In this document: positions 13,200 to 56,654 of the stretch, piece by piece | Numbering within the stretch: position 1 is the first letter of the stretch | How the letters are laid out: each line of letters opens with the position of its first letter | Assembly: GCA_951406725.2 (NCBI GenBank) | Contig: OX597826.1 | Span: forward strand, 9,052,001-9,116,000 | DNA: 64,000 nt | Direction of reading: 5' to 3' | Source of the DNA: Octopus vulgaris | Lineage: Eukaryota | The notes under the pieces: model-generated | Database searches by the model: none | Told to the model about the DNA's origin: nothing | The model's input: only the letters and a program-made list of their open reading frames with translations | Position numbers and translations under genes: made by a program

Positions 13200-13615
13200 A
13201 AACTGACTCTGTGAGTAAATTAAAAACATTCCAGGCCGAATCCGAACCTACAATCTTGAAACTTTGGATTCCCATTTTTTCATTACAGCGATTGTTTTTG
13301 ACGATTTTTTTTTTTTTTTAGGTGACTTTTTGCAACAAATTTATTATCTAAAGGCTAACTCTGTGAGTAAATTAAAAACATTCTGGGCCGAATCCGAACC
13401 CACAATCTTGAAATTTTGGATTCCCAAGTTTTCATTACAGCGATTATTTTTTCTTTTTTTTTTTTAGGTGACTTTTTGCAACAAATTTATAATCTAAAGG
13501 CTAACTCTGTGAGTAAATTAAAAACATTCTGGGCCGAATCCGAACCTGGAATCCTGAAATTTTGGATTCCTACATTTTCATTACTGCAATTGTTTTCAGT
13601 GATTTTTGTGACAAA
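13200..13615 (+). repeat. ~150-bp tandem triplication inside the Helitron
   Basis: TCTGTGAGTAAATTAAAAACATTC..GCCGAATCCGAACC recurs at ~13209, ~13360 and ~13506. Confidence 0.9.
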
Positions 13616-13757
13616 TATGATCATCATTGGGATATGACTCTGGAGGAAGCAATTGCAACAAATTCTCCAAAACAAGTCAGGGATCTGTTTGCAGATCTTC
13701 CCATTCAGGGTCAGTTGCTTAAAAGTTATATAGGGTGGCTTTTAAGCTAGTGATATA

Positions 13758-13793
<36 letters not shown>

Positions 13794-14254
13794 ATGTGTG
13801 TGTGTGTGTGTGTATGTGTGTTTTTGTTTCTGACTTACAGTCAACTAACTGGGCAATACCCTATCATTTATATTCTGATTTCCGTAACTTTGCTAGCACG
13901 TATCTCTCTCTTGTCTACTCTATCATCCTATATATATTCTGATCCCTGTTCCTTCTGAGTGTGCCCTGGTACTAAGCCACCATCTTTCTCCTGTTCTCTC
14001 TTGCACTCTCACTCTCCTCCTCTCTCTTTCTCTTGCTCTCTCTCCCTCTGACTGTATCTCCTCTACATTAACACACCTGTTTCTGTTCTCATTCTCAATC
14101 ACACTCTCTCTCTTTGACCAGGTAACCATGTATCACTTCAAGACCTCTATTTTTGTCATTCTGTTACACACTGAACTTTCATCATCTGACATCAGACCAC
14201 CTCCTCTAATGCTCCCTCCCATCTCAAAGGATCTTTGTCTTGCAAGTTTATTGA

Positions 14255-14615
14255 AGTAGATTTCCTACAGCCTGATGCACTTCCTGTCACTAACCCTTAC
14301 CTGTTTCCAAGCAATATAATGTTTCCCATGGCCAAACATGTTTTTGTAGAATGCAATAAACAATATTGAATGACATTCATTTACCACAACCACATGATGT
14401 CAAGACAAGAAGAGACAAACACATGCATGCACACACACACACACACACACACACACGATGAGCTTCTTTTGGCTTCCATCTACCAAATCCACTCATAAGG
14501 CTTTGGTCAGCCTGGTGCTATAGTAAAAGACACTTACACTAGGTACCGCACAGTGGAACTGAACCCTAAACTATGTGGTTGAAAGCAGTCTTCTTAACCA
14601 TACAGCTATGTCTGC
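14255..14615 (-). mobile_element. SINE family A head with alternative RTE-like tail
   Basis: Family A head followed by TTGTCTTGACATC...GGAAACAGGTAAGGGTTAGTGACAGGAAGTGCATC. Similar copies at ~3350-3630 and ~36620-37325. Confidence 0.7.
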
Positions 14616-15299
14616 ATACATACTTGTTAAGCCTTTGGAAATTCTACTAGAAACATGAATTATTCCTCTTCAATACAAAATCATTATAATGAATAATGGT
14701 AAAAAAAAAACAGAAAGCAAAAAACAACCCAGCAAAACAGAACAATGTCATCACCGTTATTGTGATTACTACCTACAGCTATGAAACAAACTACTGCAAC
14801 TCCACCACACCCACAACAATGAAACAAACCGCATCACCGCTGCCACCACCACCACCACCATCACAACCAGTAGTAAACAAATAGACAACTGTTACAAAGT
14901 GTAACATTTACTTTTTAAATGTTGAAATTTATGAAGCAAATGTCCAGGTTCAGTGTTGAAACGAATTAAATCATAGACAATTTTTCAAATATAAATTTTA
15001 GTCTGATAAAAAGAAGTCTTTGCTGGCGTCTCCTTATTCTTACCACAACCACCAGCAATGCCATGTAAAGCATGAATTATTCATCTTCTCTATGAAATCA
15101 CTGTAAAATCTTGGGATATATGAATGTAGTATTATATTAACACATTAAAGTTCATATTTTTTTTTAATGGAAATAGCTAATAATTTTTGGTATTTGACAG
15201 TATGCTGTAAAAATAAAATTAAATCGATAAGAGTTCATTTTAATTAAATAAGTAGAGTTGCAGGAAGCAGGGATGACTAAAATATATTTGTGTAAAGTT

Positions 15300-15785
15300 A
15301 TATTTAATATACTTGAACACACTTGGACATGGAAATACCTTCTGATGTGGAAATAGTTGCTGGAGACAATTCTCCTCTTAGACAATCAGTGAAAACACAT
15401 TGGGCTGTGAATGATGTTAGTGGATCATAGGATGCAGGCATTTCTGTGTTCTTTCACATCATTAGCTATAAACACCAAAGCTGTCTTTCACAACTCAATA
15501 AGAATGAATTTGTTCTTATATCAGGTTTGCTGATATATGTAAACTTGGTCACACTAGAACTAAATAAAGTTGTATTAAGCAGCATTGAATAAAATGTAGT
15601 CATATAAAGTTTGATTCAACACATTGAAGTCAGCTTGGATGTGGGAAGACCTTCCACTGCGTAAGTAGTCCGAGGAGAAAATTCATTTTCTTCCTTGGTA
15701 AGTGGAAATACAATGGGCAAGAATGACTTCATTGGATTGTAAGAGGCATATGTTTCTTTGTTCTTTCACATCATTAGCTATCTCC
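15300..15785 (+). repeat. diverged ~313-bp tandem duplication
   Basis: GTTCTTTCACATCATTAGCTAT at ~15448 and ~15761; CTTGGA..GACCTTC/TACCTTC blocks at 15322 and 15634. Confidence 0.7.
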
Positions 15786-16056
15786 TTTCTTCTTTTTTGC
15801 TCTCTCCTTCCTCCCTCTCTTCTGCTATTATCAGTAACGATGTCATCACACCACTAAACTAACTGCCAAGTTTCTTTATTAAAATTAGTTTCAGATTTTG
15901 ACACAAGGCCAGTAATTTTGGAGGAGCGGGTAAGTTGATTCCATTGGCCCCACTGCTCAACTAGTATTCATTTTATCAAAACTGAAAAGATGAGCGGCAA
16001 AGTCGACCTCAGCAGAATTTGCACTCGGAACAATAGTGCAGTCAATAGTGGGTTAG

Positions 16057-16108
16057 ATGAGAGCTGAAGAAGGGGCAATGACCCCTGAAATATGGTATAT
16101 ACACTCAT
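16057..16108 (+). ncRNA. type I hammerhead ribozyme, core intact
   Basis: ATGAGAG CTGAAGA AGGGG CAATGA CCCCT GAAA TATGGTATA TA CACTCAT: stem I 6/7 bp, stem II 5 bp, near-palindromic stem III. Confidence 0.85.
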
Positions 16109-16278
16109 TACCCACTTTTGTCTTCAATTACATTGTCTGTTTACATCTGATGTCTCAATATGAAATATTGCAAAAATTAATGCTAGCTATAATGTAAAGA
16201 GCACTGCTGGCACAATAGAATGTGGTACTGACTCATGAAAACATTTAGTATACCTTATAATATATTGTGTTTACAAAA

Positions 16279-16763
16279 GGATCAGAATGGAAATCGATCA
16301 ATGGAAATTGCAGATGTGTTACCAGTGCCAGTGGCATGTCGAAACTCTACTTGTGAAGACCCGTTGAGGCAAGTGAGGATCAGAATGGAAATCAATGGAA
16401 ATTGCAGATGTGTTACCAGTGCTGGTGGCATGTAAGAGAACCTTCCGTTTCGCGACCGTTGCCAGCACCGCCCCGTTTCGTGTCCGTAGCCAGCCTCGCC
16501 TGGCCCTTGTGCCGGTGGCACATAAAAAGCACCATCCGTTCGTGGCCGTTTGCCAGCTCTGTCTGGCACCTGTGCGGGTGGCACGTAAAAAGCACCCACT
16601 ACACTCACGGAGTGGTTGGCGTTAGGAAGGGCATCCAGCCGTAGAAACACTGCCAGATTTGACTGGGCCTGATGAAGCCTTCTGGCTTCACAGACCCCAG
16701 TAGAACCGTCCAACCCATGCTAGCATGGAAAACGGATGCTAAACGACGATGATGATGATGATG
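16279..16763 (+). mobile_element. RTE-type LINE 3' UTR fragment with (GAT)n tail
   Basis: Repeated GTGCCGGTGGCAC(G/A)TAAAAAGCACC hairpins, then GTGGTTGGCGTTAGGAAGGGCATCCAGC, ending GATGATGATGATGA. The same tail follows RTE ORF ends elsewhere (20330-20700, 62690-63035). Confidence 0.8.
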
Positions 16764-16862
16764 AAACCAACCCCAGGAATGCATCTAATATGTAAATTGG
16801 TATATCCAATAACTTAGCACTGCTGTATGCTGTGGCTATGTTTGGAGGCAATAGTGGGTTAG

Positions 16863-16914
16863 ATGAGTGCTGAAGAATGGGCAACGACCCCTGATATATG
16901 GCATATACACTCAT
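16863..16914 (+). ncRNA. type I hammerhead ribozyme, second tandem copy (GAAA>GATA)
   Basis: ATGAGTG CTGAAGA ATGGG CAACGA CCCCT GATA TATGGCATA TA CACTCAT, with a perfect 7-bp stem I. Confidence 0.75.
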
Positions 16915-17265
16915 TACTCCCTTTGTCTTTGATCACATTGTCTGTCTACATGTGACGTCTTGATATGAAACGTTATAGCAAAAATCATTGCTAGCTATAA
17001 GTTCAATAGAATATCTGTAGAAATAACCTAAACAAAATAATGTAAAGAGCACTGCTGATGCAATAGAATGCAGTACTGACTGATGAAAACATTTAGTATA
17101 GCTTATAGTATATTGTGTTTGCATAACAAAGTACCATGTACCAACGGATCTTTAATAATCAGAGCATAAAGATGGATGAAATGCCGCTAAGGATTTTGGC
17201 TGGCATGCTGACGATTCTGCCAGCTTGTCGCCTTAGTTACAATATTAATATTATGGTTTGTGTTA

Positions 17266-17480
17266 AGGTGGCAAGCTGGCAGAATTGTTAGCATGCTGGG
17301 CAAAATGTTTAGCAGCATTTTGACCCTCTTCATGTTCTGAGATCAAATTCCACTGAGGTTAGCTTTGCTTTTTCATCCTTTTGGAGTCAATAAAATAAAT
17401 ACCAGTTGATTACTGGGGTTGATGTAATTAACTCAGTCCTTTCCCTGAAATTGCTGGCCTTGTGCCAAAATTTGAGACCA
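17266..17480 (+). mobile_element. SINE family B
   Basis: AGGTGGCAAGCTGGCAGAATTGTTAGC head; TTTCATCCTTTTGGAGTCAATAAAATAAATACCAG domain. Confidence 0.8.
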
Positions 17481-17783
17481 ATATTATCATGTGTGTATGT
17501 ATGTGAATGTTTCAGTAGGTCACTGGATTTGTGAAGTTAGTGTGCAAGCAAGGTAACTACACTGTTACAGATATGTATTGTATATGGAAAAGCAGTTTAA
17601 AGTGATCCATGTGGAAAGAATACGCAGATGACCAAGGAAGATAGCTCTCAGCATGCTAAGGAAATGACTTATTTTTGCATCAAGTAGTGAGACAAAGACC
17701 TAGAGATCTATCCAACCCCTGTAAAAATGGATAAATGGATGTAAAAAAAAGTGGTGATGATGGTGTATTTATGTGTGTGTATG

Positions 17784-17821
<38 letters not shown>

Positions 17822-17830
17822 CACACACAA

Positions 17831-17861
<31 letters not shown>

Positions 17862-17881
17862 TGCATATATACACACATGTT

Positions 17882-17926
<45 letters not shown>

Positions 17927-18208
17927 ATATACACACAATGCATAAAGAGATGTGCTGCTAATACAGCTTAATGCCATCTTTATCTATTGTACATTTTAAA
18001 CATCATTATTTATGCATTGCCATTTAAATACATGGCATTTATTTTGTAAAATATTGTTCTATTTACCTTATTACAGTCCACACAACCTACTTCAGCATCC
18101 ACTGAATGTCACAGATGGGGACATATTCATACATACTCAAGCATACACACACACACACAGGCAAAATAAGCATGTTCTATGCTGCATTGGTAAAATAGTT
18201 CTACCATA

Positions 18209-18580
18209 GGTGCAGGAGTGGCTGTATGGTAAGAAGTTTGCTTCCCAACCACATGGTTCTAGGTTCAGTCCCATTGCATGGCACCTTGGGCAAGTGTCTT
18301 CTGTAGCCTGAAGCCAACCAAAGCCTTGTGAGTGGATTTGGTAGATGGAAACTGAAAGAAGCCTGTCGTGTGTGTGTGTATTTGTGTCTGTGTGTGTACC
18401 TCCATCATTGCTTCATAATTGATGTTGGTGTGTTTACATCCCCATAACTTAGTAGTTTGGCAAAAGAGACCCATAGAATAAGTACTAGGCTTACAAAGAA
18501 TAAGTCTTGGGGCCAATTTGTTTGACTAAAAGCAGTTCTCCAGCATGGCCACAGTCAAATGACTGAAAAAACCAATAGAA
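18209..18580 (+). mobile_element. SINE family A, full length
   Basis: GGTGCAGGAGTGGCTGTATGGTAAGAAG head through GTCAAATGACTGAAA tail. Confidence 0.9.
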
Positions 18581-18783
18581 TACTGCATATTGCTATATAT
18601 AAGAAATGTTTTTCATCTCATCCTTGAAACAAAACATAATTTTGTGATTCGACCTTACTATTTCTTTGTGTCCGCATATTTTGAAATCATTTAATATATA
18701 TGTTTCAGGTCTACATAGAATATGATAGGAAATGCATCCATTACATAAGACCTTCCAGAGTTAAAGTATTTCAATATATATAT

Positions 18784-19654
18784 AAGGTGTGGTAAGTAAA
18801 TTCTTGCTATTTTATAATTTTAGTTACGTGCATGGGCAGTTTGTTTTTGATTTTGTCAACTACACAGTATAGTAGGGTTAGTTGGGAACTGTCTGGTAGA
18901 AAAACAGTACCATGACGCAATTCACTCTGCCTTAAATTTGGAAATGACATGCTGGATTGCTTGGCATTCATGCTGGGAGCTGAAATACAAACAGATGGTG
19001 AACACACAGAACAACCATTGGCTTGCCATGTCCCCAAAACATGTACTAAGAGTGATAAAAATCAAACATCCAGTCAACATCATGGTGTTTCGAGTGATTA
19101 CTAGCGATGGTGACGTTCATCTTCCCATATGGCTTTAGATTCAACATGGAGGCCTACGTCAAATGCCTGGAGGAGTTAGTGCTACTCTGGGTCAAGAGAG
19201 AGGCTGTTGGAAGACCCAATGTATGGCAACAGGACTCTGCACCACACCACACAAACAGAGAAACCCAGTCATTTCTGTCAGACAATTTCTGTGACCACAT
19301 CACCCCTAATGTCTGACCACCTAACTCAGACTGCAACCCCCTTGATTATTATGTGTGGGGTGCAGTTGAGCAAGAGACCAACAAAACTCCTTGTTACACC
19401 AAAGATGAACTGAAGGCAAGGATTATGGCAGCATTCACCAACTTAAACTAGGAGACTTTCCAGAAGAGTTGCAGGAGATTCTGAAGTCATCTGGAGGCCA
19501 TGGTTGAAGCCAATGGTGATTTTATTGAATTAATTTACTTTTTAATATTTCAAGATATTTTAATGTAATTTTGGTAAATATATCTGTTAAAATGAGATGT
19601 CAGTATTATATCATTTTTGCATAATTTAGATGACAGTATATTCACTGCACCCTT
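18784..19654 (+). mobile_element. internally deleted Tc1/mariner-superfamily element, DD37D (maT)-like
   Basis: Peptides IMVFRVITSDG, WQQDSAPHHT, *PPNSDCNPLDYYVWG and LEAMVEANGDFIE. The D..D spacing is ~36-37. The right end is the reverse complement of the CAGGGTGCAG-type TIR. Confidence 0.85.
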
Positions 19655-51567: not shown

Positions 51568-51612
51568 TGTCCTCTGAAGAGTGGCCAATGAACCATGAAA
51601 AATCTCAGGGCA
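51568..51612 (+). ncRNA. minimal type I hammerhead, core intact
   Basis: TGTCCT CTGAAGA GTGG CCAATGAA CCAT GAAA AATC TC AGGGCA: 6-bp stem I; stem III is one change from the AGATCT palindrome. Confidence 0.7.
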
Positions 51613-51820: not shown

Positions 51821-52571
51821 TGTATTACTATTCTTTGGTTACCTACAGAACTTTGAACCTAAATCACTATATATAGCAGGCTATAACATTAAGAGCTGTC
51901 TTCCTCCTCATCATCCTTTAATGTCTATTTTTCATGCTGGCATGGGTTGGATGTTTTGACCAGAGCTGACGAACAGGAGAGCTGCTCTAGGTTCCAGTCT
52001 GATTTGGTTTGATTTCTATGGCTGGATACCCTTCCTAATGCCAACCACTTTATAGGGTGTGCTGGGTCCTTTTTATGTGGCACTGGCACAGGTGCTTTAA
52101 TATGGTGCCAGCATAGGTATCATTATGTAGTGCCAGCACAGGAGCTTTTCATGTGGCACCAACATGGTTGCTTTTTATGTGGTACAGGACTCTTGCAGGC
52201 TAGTCCTCCTCAGCAAGGGAGTGGCATTAACAACACTGCTGTGAAGGTTGTGTCTTCTTGAGCCCAGCAAGATGCCAGATATCCATACATCATCATCATT
52301 TAATGTCCGTTATCCATGCTGGCATGTGTTGGACAGTTTGACCAAGGCTGATAAACTGGAAGGCTGCACCAGACTCCAGTCTGATTTGGCATGATTTTCT
52401 ATGGCCAGATGCCCTTCCATACACCAACCGCTCTGAAAGCGTAATATGTGCTTTTACATGCCACCAGCAGATGTGCCATTTGTGTGACACTGGTATCTGC
52501 TATGACTGCAATTTTGCTCAGCTTGACGGGTCTTCTTCTCAAGCACAACATAATGCCAAAGGTCCCAGTCA

Positions 52572-52808
52572 TTGCCTCTGTGAGGCCCACCATTCAAAAG
52601 GAACTCAGCCACTTTGCCTCCATAAGGCCTAATGCTCAAAAGGAACTCAGCCACTTTGCCTCCATGAGGCCTAATGCTCAAAAGGAACTCAGCCACTTTG
52701 CCTCCATGAGGCCTAATGCTCAAAAGGAACTCAGCCACTTTGCCTCCATGAGGCCTAATGCTCAAAAGGAACTCAGCCACTTTGCCTCTGTGAGACCCAA
52801 CTCTGCCA
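52572..52808. repeat. 42-bp minisatellite, ~5.5 copies, at the 5' edge of a minus-strand RTE 3' fragment
   Basis: (AAGGAACTCAGCCACTTTGCCTCCATGAGGCCTAATGCTCAA)n. Confidence 0.95.
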
Positions 52809-54189
52809 AGTAGTAAATTAAATAATATATATTCATACAGAAAATAATATAATTCAGAATACATGAAAGATTTGTAATGTAGATAACCTTAGATTTATAT
52901 ATTGGAAAATCTGGTGATTGAGTTGATGTGAAAATAACTTATTGTTCTCTTAACAAAAAAAATTCACTTCTAAGATGTTGGTTAATCTGAGGTGACAGTC
53001 AGTAAAGGACACCTTCCAATAGGATTGAACTAAGAACAATGCGGCTGTGGAGCTTCTTAAACAGACAGCTTTATCTGTGCTTATGTTTATCGTTATGTAT
53101 TATAATAAGGTTAAAAATAACCATTCCTCCACTTTAAGTATATTCAGCCAAATTCCTTTCTGTTCATCTTCAATGTATATTGCAAGGGCTTCAAAAGTAT
53201 GTAATTCTAACATCAGTGGTCATATCAACATGTGTTCCATAACTGACGGAATTGTGTCTCAATCACATATGATGTTATTGAAAGAGCTGTGTCCCCATTT
53301 GCTGGAGTTACCTTGCTGTAAAGCATAAAGTCCCAAAGTCCAGTCTATATGATGTTGGTACATTTGGGTGCAAGCTGGATTCGAACCTAAAACATTAAGG
53401 GACATAAGCAAATCTTTGTCTCTGTCATTCTATCAATCTTAAGCAGCTCCCCATACTACTGCAACTGCTTCACACCACCATCATATTATTCTTATAATAT
53501 CAATGATATTGATTTCTAACAATTGTACAAGGCCACCAATTTTAAGGTGGAAGTGGGTTTATAGTTCAGCAGTACTCAGACTGATAGTGGTAAGAAACTT
53601 TCAAGAGAACCTAACAGCAGAAAGTCTTCAGAGAAGAAACCCCCCACCTCAGGCAAGTGTTTTGGCTCTTAACTTCTTAAACTCTAAGGGGGCTGCACTG
53701 CATCCAGTTCATGACTCCTGGGTGCCCTTCTAACAATTTTTAGCCACTTGGATATTGAAGACTTGTGCATTTAAACTGTCTTGAGATTTGATCCAGTTGC
53801 AACAAATGGCATCCCCTCCAAAATATCAAAGTAACTTCTTGCCCCTCTCCTAACATTTATTAATAAGATGATGAAATAGAATATACGAGTCCAATTTGTC
53901 CACTTTCTTTTCAACCCTCACTGTCCTAGCCCACGTCTATGATCATAACCATGGTATAGTTGTATGGCTTGGTTAGCAGGGAGCTGCAGATTTGTTTAGG
54001 CTGTGTATTGTTTCCCACATAAAACCAACCGTAATTTTCAGTTTTAATGAATCATATTTATTTCCATATTACCATTATAAAGGTTTCTTGCTGAAGGCTA
54101 TTATGCTGAATACCAGCAGCTAATGTGTGATAGGAGACGATGTTGTATTCATGCTTGGCAAGAGGAGGAAATGTTACATGCATGCTTTG

Positions 54190-55069: not shown

Positions 55070-55157
55070 GGTTCTATATTTAAGAGATGAAGAATTATGT
55101 ACATTATTTATATTGTTTACATTTGATGGATATTTGTCCTCATCTTGTTTGTTCTTT

Positions 55158-55203
55158 AACACAATGTTTCGGCTGATATACCCTCCAGCCTTCATCAGGT
55201 GTC
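55158..55203 (-). ncRNA. minimal type I hammerhead (PLE type)
   Basis: GACAC CTGATGA A GGCTG GAGGGTATAT CAGCC GAAA CA TT GTGTT. Confidence 0.8.
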
Positions 55204-55250
55204 TTGTGGAAATTTTGAACCTGGGTTCTTATTCCTAAGGTATTTTTCGA

Positions 55251-55419: not shown

Positions 55420-56423
55420 TGTTGCGAACCACCTGCCATCGCTCAAACTCTTCGGGAAAACCCGGGACCCTACCAAGTCAAGCAACGACGATTTACCGGC
55501 CCGATCGATCGGCGAACTCGCCACGGACTCAGGGAGAGAGAGAACTCGGTGGGGGAAAAGCGGCAGCAAACACGGCAGCCGGCGACCGGAGATAACAACA
55601 GTAGGAAGAGACACAAAGAGAGTCGGCGGAAGGCAATTGGCTACATTTAACAACAGTAGTTTATACAATTATTACAACATCAAATAAATCAAAGATACAT
55701 CAGGTATACATTAAAGAAAACAACAAATCAAATTAAAACATGCAAATACAGTTCAATACATTTCAGATCAATTAATGTTCACGATACAGTTCAAAGTTCT
55801 TTAAAGTCTTTCTCCTTCTTTCTTTCTTTTCAACAACTCTTTTACTTAATTCACAATGTCTTTACACAGTTCTTTCTTTTTCCTCTTTCCTTCCTTCACA
55901 TATCAATTCTTTTACATTTCAACATCAATACAACAATCAAACACATACCGTTACAACATAGCCAGTGCCCTCATACCGTAGTCCCTCTCTCTTAGCTCCT
56001 TAATCCTATCTGTCTGTCTTCCTCTACGCTGTCATTGCCTCATGCCGTAATCCTATCTGCCTGTCTTCCTCTTTCACATTCACTGTCATTCTCTCGCCTG
56101 TCATCCCTCAGATTGTCTGTCTGTCTTTCTCAACTGACCGCCTCCTCTGACCTCTTTTGCTGTCTCAGCAGAACTCCTCAACTGCCCTGTTACCAACTCA
56201 CTGTCTCCGGCCGAACTGTCCCAAACTCACAGCTCGTCGCTTTTTAAAGGGTAGCTTCCTCGACCCTTCTTTGACCGGAAAAAGGGCAGAGGTCTCTCCG
56301 AAAGTCATTACTCTTTCGTGAATCTGGCAGAACAAAGACAATAACTTTATATCCCAGACTTTCAGACTACAATGAGCAAAGTAGGTCATAACATTTGTTT
56401 CCCGAATTGACCTACTCATAACA
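55420..56423. mobile_element. solo LTR, 1,004 bp (Gypsy-like)
   Basis: TGTT...AACA termini with 4-bp TSD ATAC (55416-55419, 56424-56427). The empty site GAAAAATACCTTAGG is preserved in the other arm. CpG-rich ends. Confidence 0.85.
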
Positions 56424-56463
56424 ATACCTTAGGAATGAGAATCCAGGTTTGAAATTTTCCCAA

Positions 56464-56509
56464 GACACCTGATGAAGGCTGGAAGGTATATCAGCCGAAA
56501 TGTTGTATT
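56464..56509 (+). ncRNA. minimal type I hammerhead (inverted copy)
   Basis: GACAC CTGATGA A GGCTG GAAGGTATAT CAGCC GAAA TG TT GTATT. Confidence 0.78.
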
Positions 56510-56654
56510 AACAACAAACAAGATGAGGACAAATAATGTTGATTTTGCCTTTCATCCTTCAGGGTCGATAAATTAAGTACCAGTCGAGCACTGGGATTGA
56601 TGCAATCAACTAATCCTCTCCCCCAATATTTCAGGCCTTGTGCCTATAGTATAA

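Follow-up and report, generated by a model that had tools for sequence, protein, structure and literature searches.

Non-LTR retrozymes have been established in corals, mussels, amphibians and other animals, and the available part of their description (Cervera & de la Pena 2020, PMC7229834) outlines a cycle of tandem transcription, one hammerhead cut per unit, ligation by an RtcB-type enzyme and reverse transcription by a helper, for which Penelope-like elements (PLEs) were named as a candidate. According to the same source, the units of Mytilus galloprovincialis measure 350-390 bp, and retrozyme target duplications, when present, exceed 4 bp. A recent preprint (Li, Clavereau & Pollet 2026, 10.64898/2026.07.22.740005), as far as its available text goes, reports animal retrozymes averaging about 100-650 bp depending on the animal class, in a survey of 31 vertebrates, 3 insects and 1 anthozoan with no mollusc among them. 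As for cephalopods, 235 Rfam hammerhead-1 loci were counted in the giant squid genome (PMC6962438, available part), the words "hammerhead", "ribozyme" and "retrozyme" do not occur in the available part of a repeat paper on Octopus vulgaris (PMC13282606), and neither octopus nor cephalopod occurs in two supplementary files of PMC4209133. Our own search, which stopped short of most subscription papers, Repbase, Dfam and key supplements, found no published report of a cephalopod retrozyme.

We analysed a 64,000-nucleotide stretch of the O. vulgaris genome (contig OX597826.1), hereafter the window, in which an earlier note had proposed an octopus retrozyme or non-autonomous PLE family. This assignment was supported by a multi-copy family with a conserved hammerhead core, by ORF-less head-to-tail joints and by folding across the whole unit. 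We consider it likely that positions 16033-17158 are one old retrotransposition product, namely a decayed non-autonomous non-LTR retrozyme whose unit measures about 400-410 bp and whose helper was probably Penelope-like. The element, which comprises about 1.8 units and has a GC content of 36%, split a SINE-like repeat, and its parts are as follows.

15860-16032, unstranded: left half of the split SINE-like host repeat, high-copy, matched by many copies in the window.
16025-16032, unstranded: left target-site duplication of 8 bp, TCGGAACA, agreeing with the right copy in 6 of 8 letters.
16033-16042, forward strand: 10 extra letters at the 5′ junction, where CAATAGTG at 16031-16038 recurs at 16043-16050.
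16043-16277, forward strand: copy A, a 5′-truncated unit starting at the ribozyme, lacking 40 bp (16997-17036 of copy B) and about 40 bp at the nested insertion.
16277-16765, forward strand: nested dispersed repeat of 489 bp with a (GAT)n tail; its bounds may be off by 1-2 bp.
16766-16848, forward strand: the part of the unit upstream of the hammerhead, found once at this locus and elsewhere following the sequence of 17133-17156 in go-back joints.
16849-17158, forward strand: copy B, which extends about 250 nt beyond its predicted cleavage site, to where the insertion ends on the 3′ side.
17159-17166, unstranded: right target-site duplication, TCAGAGCA, from the host-repeat alignment and the junction test.
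17159-17240, unstranded: right half of the split SINE-like host repeat, from window copies, alignment and the junction test.

The ends of the element were set by the host repeat. In the alignment, the left flank tracks the host-repeat consensus to 16032 and the right flank picks it up at 17159. After the left half had been fused to 17167 onward, which drops 8 bp, 9 of 10 BLAST matches to window copies crossed the junction, 6 of them gapless; keeping both 8-mers forced an 8-nt gap against the host copies, and removing either one gave gapless matches. Because the halves rejoin without a gap once 8 bp are taken out, the bounds 16033-17158 and the 8-bp duplication are established together. The duplication (6 of 8 letters identical, at one locus) is longer than 4 bp, and the ends given by the split host repeat show no LTR structure. 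The repetition of CAATAGTG at the 5′ junction possibly reflects slippage or microhomology. The original insertion started at the first ribozyme and ended about 250 nt beyond the second cut site. The nested 489-bp repeat has many relatives within the window; no target duplication was seen at its ends, about 40 bp of the unit were lost there, and it is a putative RTE insertion, as the earlier note had labelled it. ARAGORN predicted no tRNA genes in the window, and thus no tRNA origin was seen for the SINE-like host repeat. Two other repeats lie next to the element. A 61-nt direct repeat (15409-15469 and 15721-15781, 312 bp apart, 79%) is found upstream, without a hammerhead core, and two back-to-back SINE-like halves form an imperfect inverted repeat at 17159-17340 (77-nt arms, 79%). 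The Rfam matches of miRNA type at 17192-17307 were discarded, being below the gathering score and arising from these two inverted halves.

The two hammerheads do lie 806 bp apart, as had been noted from the letters, within repeat family D5 (82 nt, 89%). Alignment of copy A (16043-16278) with copy B (16849-17126) gave 207 identical columns of 235, a Jukes-Cantor (JC) divergence of 0.13 with 19 transitions and 9 transversions, which looks neutral, and a 40-bp gap in copy A facing 16997-17036 of copy B. Each copy opens with the layout of a type I hammerhead.

16047-16116, forward strand: hammerhead A, type I, with an intact core; stem I has one mismatch, stem II is closed at its base by A-U, and the cut is predicted after 16101.
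16853-16922, forward strand: hammerhead B, type I, with a core mutation at 16895 and mispaired letters in stem II and distal stem I; predicted cut after 16907.

In both, stem I consists of a 7-bp distal part, a UAG/U internal loop and a 7-bp proximal part, and is followed by CUGAAGA and a 5-bp stem II with a 6-nt loop; the 3′ part contains the GAAA box (GATA in copy B), a short stem III and AUA. Hammerhead A has one A-A mismatch, in stem I. In hammerhead B the box reads GATA instead of GAAA, stem II contains a U-C mismatch and distal stem I is mismatched once; from these letters it is predicted to be catalytically inactive. The positions of the mismatches confirm that the defects of the two copies are complementary. 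The claim of a complete hammerhead in each unit holds for copy A, the only one of the two copies at 16033-17158 with a full core, and fails for copy B, whose box is GATA and whose hammerhead folded no better than shuffled sequences (z -0.3). The fold of hammerhead A gave z -3.3 in one run and -2.9 in another. A structural descriptor matched once in the 64-kb window, at copy A, and in 1 of 200 dinucleotide shuffles, so that hammerhead A is beyond what chance would produce. The pattern CUGANGA...GAAA...NUH, around a three-way junction with an open helix I, is present in copy A and in the family majority and is broken in copy B.

Several details of the ribozyme merit description. The closing pair of stem II is A-U in both copies in place of G10.1-C11.1, and no variant at 16877 or 16892 appeared among the 40 of 152 variant places listed. 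A purine-pyrimidine pair at the stem II base may suffice. The G10.1-C11.1 pair is called "highly conserved" in hammerheads (PMC4209133, available part). The UAG/U internal loop in stem I and the 6-nt C...A loop 2 may provide the elements of a contact between loops 1 and 2. Together they presumably resemble the Schistosoma motif. Rfam returned no hammerhead match for either copy, at the gathering score or at E values up to 10, a match there not being a defining feature of a hammerhead. Stem III had been described as nearly palindromic, and the computed energies agree: the self-duplex of the 11-mer gave -8.4 kcal/mol for copy B and -4.6 for copy A, and the monomer hairpin +2.9. The pairing probability of stem III in the monomer was at most 0.05 in copy A and in the majority fold, and cofolds of copy B and of the majority version contained the dimer helix III. 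On these models the suggestion of dimeric cleavage in the earlier note appears reasonable; cleavage favoured in the dimer is usual for metazoan type I hammerheads (PMC4209133, available part).

Across the window, the loose core pattern occurred 12 times, where 3.35 occurrences were expected. One candidate, the CUGAAGA...GAAA match at 51574-51600, which is 80% like hammerhead A over 30 nt, was rejected, having a weak stem II and failing the full descriptor. Another hammerhead family, unrelated to this one and of the minimal PLE type, was observed at 55121-55215 (reverse strand) and 56456-56530 (forward strand), inverted as in Penelope-type insertions. Its members show CUGAUGA, an unpaired A, a 5-bp stem II, GAAA and a two-letter helix III insert resembling a decayed CG palindrome. 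Between them lies a 1004-bp insert (55420-56423) with TGTT...AACA ends and a 4-bp duplication (ATAC), which looks like a solo LTR. Open frames at 52445-52813 derive from a short tandem repeat with a 13-residue period in translation, probably a non-coding minisatellite.

To describe the family, contigs from 4 of 24 listed sequencing runs were aligned to 16766-17158 at a likeness of at least 80%. The run index gave 20 rows with the stretch or part of it, 7 of them with at least half of its words; of the rows with a small share (0.06), X12 and X15 were used. It named no RNA run as containing the stretch, which says nothing for or against expression. There were 848 such contigs in DNA run X4 (organism coded A) and 1056 in DNA run X15 (organism coded E), mostly less than 95% like this locus, and the element therefore belongs to a multi-copy family in both organisms. 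Exact-motif scans gave no matches in metagenome_contigs and viral_contigs.

The unit of about 320 bp proposed before must be given up. The distance of 806 bp less the nested 489 bp leaves 317 bp, a decayed remnant of a family period of 399 bp or slightly more, from which the 40-bp deletion, a 3-bp indel and the roughly 40 bp lost at the nested repeat are missing. This period was read from go-back joints that lead from 17133-17156 to 16766-16773 with known intervening letters. Among the joints listed (15 of 72) there were 8 of these, four in each of X4 and X15, with a period of 399 in 7 and of 386 in 1, in window coordinates. Many family copies hold about 9-11 additional letters behind 16837-16843, and thus the family unit measures about 400-410 bp; the predicted circle of about 320 nt is accordingly of the wrong size. 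Four further joins (16839 to 17002, 16900 to 17007, 17125 to 17006 and 17156 to 17000) did not enter the period count, and they indicate that rearranged, hammerhead-less or internally deleted derivatives exist. TRF reported no 320- or 400-bp period and missed the tandem. The head-to-tail arrangement, with one type I hammerhead per unit and a period inside the range of about 150-450 bp typical of metazoan non-LTR retrozymes, is seen in the family up to the dimer, the contigs showing adjacency only.

The family letters repaired the core of copy B. At 16895, its GATA site, A accounted for 86% of depth in X4 (34 contigs) and 95% in X15 (54 contigs), at 16878 in stem II G made up 81% and 94%, and at 16918 and 16920 C and A made up 48-85%. 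The free core position N7 (16874) was variable (33% and 49%). The core is kept in the family, with N7 free to vary. The consensus hammerhead reconstructed in the earlier note departs from the family at the fifth letter of loop 2 (16886), for which it had G and the family majority is A (85% and 92% of depth in X4 and X15). Two outcomes that had been set against the retrozyme reading, namely other copies without core conservation and copies always attached to a full PLE ORF, were not encountered as far as the contigs show. In two further runs, X12 and X23, which we guess to be RNA (the library type is not on record and DNA is possible), 37 and 27 family contigs were found; none was at least 99% like this locus, and all those covering 16895 carried A (8 and 3). 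The letters of the loose ends at 16852-16856 and 16918-16922 suggest a subfamily with a distal stem I pair changed on both strands, the two sides being in different contigs.

At 2 of 14 informative places (16886 and 16993) copies A and B both carry letters that are in the minority in the family; of the others, 10 are private to B and 2 show a third letter. An apparent third shared place, 16920, was dropped as an alignment slip, copy A having the majority letter in the +806 register. The shared minority letters fit one source for A and B, and fit equally a circle, a multimer, a template jump or a later DNA duplication. The last of these is a possible alternative source of the two hammerheads: a monomer would have been inserted first, unequal crossover or slippage would have made the second hammerhead, and the tandem would be uninformative on a circular template. 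Local amplification by unequal crossover has been proposed for retrozymes (10.64898/2026.07.22.740005, available part), and the minority letters common to A and B would follow directly. Nevertheless, we hold this course of events to be very unlikely, since head-to-tail joints are a trait of the family in two organisms and the insertion spans two cleavage sites while being bounded by one target duplication.

The folding of the whole unit was then compared between the decayed copy and the family. Copy B with the upstream part (391 nt), folded as a circle, was no better than shuffles (z +1.0 and +0.9). Putting in 20 majority letters brought the circle energy of -75.4 kcal/mol down to -107.8 (z -5.6), a value that none of 100 shuffles equalled; it also extended stem I by 10 bp and produced several long hairpins. 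None of 150 sets of matched random changes was as good as the majority letters, and the same count (0 of 150) was obtained when the five hammerhead letters were kept and the other 15 randomised. At 12 of these 20 places the majority letter has a pairing partner to which the letter of copy B could not pair. The plus strand folded better than the minus strand (-107.8 versus -98.0). The monomer with majority letters is predicted to be highly self-paired (65% paired), a property lost in the decayed copy B. Such a pattern is to be expected if selection acted on a structured RNA across the unit and the copy at this locus then decayed neutrally. The linear fold gained as much (-82.0 to -113.7), and for this reason the gain does not speak for a circular RNA.

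These data also bear on the present state of the locus. Judged by its letters, it is a decayed remnant in which no more than one core could be competent, and it is probably dead. If it were instead a live or host-recruited ribozyme cassette still making a small circular RNA, such as the circle of about 320 nt suggested in the earlier note, the full core of copy A with its fold at about z -3 would be expected, and so would the presence of much of 16766-17158 in runs of several coded organisms. We give this almost no credence: the mutated core of copy B leaves no second cut, the 806-nt spacing holds a nested repeat in place of a unit, the family fold is gone from copy B (z about +0.9), and the divergence of A and B looks neutral. 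By the rule of the 2026 preprint, in which an "active" retrozyme has complete hammerheads in two consecutive units, the locus is not active, the core of B being broken; among 9 Xenopus dimers assayed in that work, 8 showed no cleavage (10.64898/2026.07.22.740005, available part). The per-copy divergence here is JC 0.065, a value equated with about 18 million years (PMC13282606, available part), and the insertion would be of about that age if this equation applies.

The same body of evidence has to be weighed for another origin, in which the 400-bp piece is mainly the pLTR of an autonomous, ORF-bearing PLE and the ORF-less dimers are by-products of truncation or template jumping that do not propagate themselves. 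Insertions of PLEs are indeed truncated at the 5′ end and form partial tandems, the hammerheads lying in the pLTR (PMC8557442). Among 57 Xenopus retrozyme families, 24 correspond to Repbase elements, almost all of which are PLEs, the match being at the PLE termini (10.64898/2026.07.22.740005), and 30 Penelope families of recent activity are listed for O. vulgaris (PMC13282606), each as given in the available part of the source. The loose ends are mixed before 16773 (agreement only 0.54) and behind 17029-17036, and the contigs are compatible with ORF-bearing copies that share the unit as pLTR. However, the identical 399-bp go-back joint occurs in both organisms (7 of 8 joints listed), folding is conserved across the whole unit, and the ribozyme is canonical, with an extended stem I and a 6-nt loop 2, and is not of the minimal type of PLEs (PMC4209133, available part). 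The unit had been described as free of ORFs, and the protein scan upheld this: 34 of 55 stop-to-stop frames of at least 45 aa in 13500-19500 were scanned, those left out being mainly microsatellite or low-complexity sequence, and none reached a Pfam cut-off or matched RT or GIY-YIG. With both insertion ends accounted for, there is no ORF with RT and GIY-YIG between pLTRs at this locus, and no RT remnant was seen nearby in these 34 frames. On balance we regard a pLTR origin as unlikely and prefer a non-autonomous retrozyme.

Depth along the unit was far from even in both DNA runs, and two blocks stood out.

16780-16821, forward strand: high-depth block 1, about ten times as deep as the hammerhead bins in X4 and in X15.
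16990-17045, forward strand: high-depth block 2, at about tenfold the hammerhead depth, overlapping the 40 bp missing from copy A.

Relative to one copy, the hammerhead bins reached 52-76 and 80-187 times and the blocks 635-1203, ratios that are rough and are not copy numbers. With majority letters, block 2 contains an 11-bp hairpin (17000-17024). Long loose ends that agree poorly with one another depart from 17029-17036. A pairing between the two blocks was considered and rejected (-9.1 kcal/mol, 398 of 500 shuffles as good). The blocks may be common to diverged subfamilies or to a helper; they may also mark where short copies end, stem from derivatives without a hammerhead or be produced by the contig graph. 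We lean against, while noting as a tentative idea, their being cis signals at which the Penelope-like RT-endonuclease would bind or start on the parasite RNA, common to the terminal repeat of the helper and to hammerhead-less derivatives. In PLE RNA, internal initiation and a protein-binding region have been described (PMC11167929, available part). If this idea were true, the family would allow genomic and biochemical tests of which enzyme moves animal retrozymes and whether the circle is copied. Such a test would also use dispersed insertions with both ends that cross two cleavage sites, and the two high-copy blocks could point to the recognition signal of the helper.

Taken as a non-autonomous retrozyme, the element may have arisen through the following cycle. 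A tandem source locus would be transcribed, and type I hammerheads would cut the RNA once per unit, according to the computed folds probably best as dimers via the near-palindromic stem III. By analogy with known retrozymes (PMC7229834, available part), the monomer would be ligated by a host RtcB-type ligase into a self-paired circle. A Penelope-like RT-endonuclease acting in trans would then copy about 1.8 units of a circular or uncleaved multimeric RNA, and the copy would be inserted at a staggered cut; both template and helper are our proposal. What is observed of this step is the more-than-unit length, both ends and the 8-bp duplication. Since the insertion spans two cut sites, a single linear monomer cut at both ends cannot have been the template, which leaves a circle, an uncleaved multimer or a template jump of the enzyme, or else the later DNA duplication considered above. 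The subsequent decay of the copy is seen in its point changes, the 40-bp deletion and the nested 489-bp repeat with about 40 bp lost. The 30 recently active Penelope families of O. vulgaris (PMC13282606, available part) mean that a potential helper is at hand in octopus. The clean footprint (ends, 8-bp duplication, about 1.8 units and two cleavage sites) fits the proposed, unproven step in which a PLE enzyme copies a circular template. Together with the selection on RNA structure across the whole unit, this footprint makes up part of the value of the locus. That value is modest, a further retrozyme family being expected rather than surprising.

On its testable features the element belongs to the metazoan non-LTR retrozymes and is a new family of a known class, which thereby appears extended to octopus. 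As in that class (PMC7229834, available part), the unit is non-coding, low in GC and a few hundred bp long, is arranged head to tail with one type I hammerhead each, has a self-paired predicted circle and a target duplication of more than 4 bp, and shows no LTR; mussel units are the closest in size, the octopus unit lying at the upper end with about 400-410 bp. Unlike these retrozymes it has A-U at the base of stem II, and its helix III is of 4 bp with a 3-nt loop (a 10-bp dimer helix with a central G-G), compared with the usual 1-2 bp. With the PLE-derived animal retrozymes (Li, Clavereau & Pollet 2026, 10.64898/2026.07.22.740005, available part) it shares pLTR-like hammerhead dimers and monomers and a proposed PLE helper, whereas this locus fails their "active" rule and was missed by TRF. 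The type I ribozyme, the palindromic helix III, the 5′-truncated partial tandem and the dispersed copies are also found with PLE pLTR hammerheads (PMC4209133, Cervera & de la Pena 2014; PMC8557442, Craig et al. 2021; available parts). In contrast to canonical PLEs, as described in those parts, there is no RT/GIY-YIG ORF at the locus, and the octopus ribozyme is canonical, with no unpaired base before G10.1, where PLEs have the minimal type (PMC4209133). The satellite-2 repeats of newt and axolotl (330-350 bp, per the available part of PMC7229834) are alike in their weak monomer helix III and their dimer-favoured cleavage, which for octopus is a prediction; unlike satellite-2, the octopus copy is a dispersed insertion, and the contigs show no large array.
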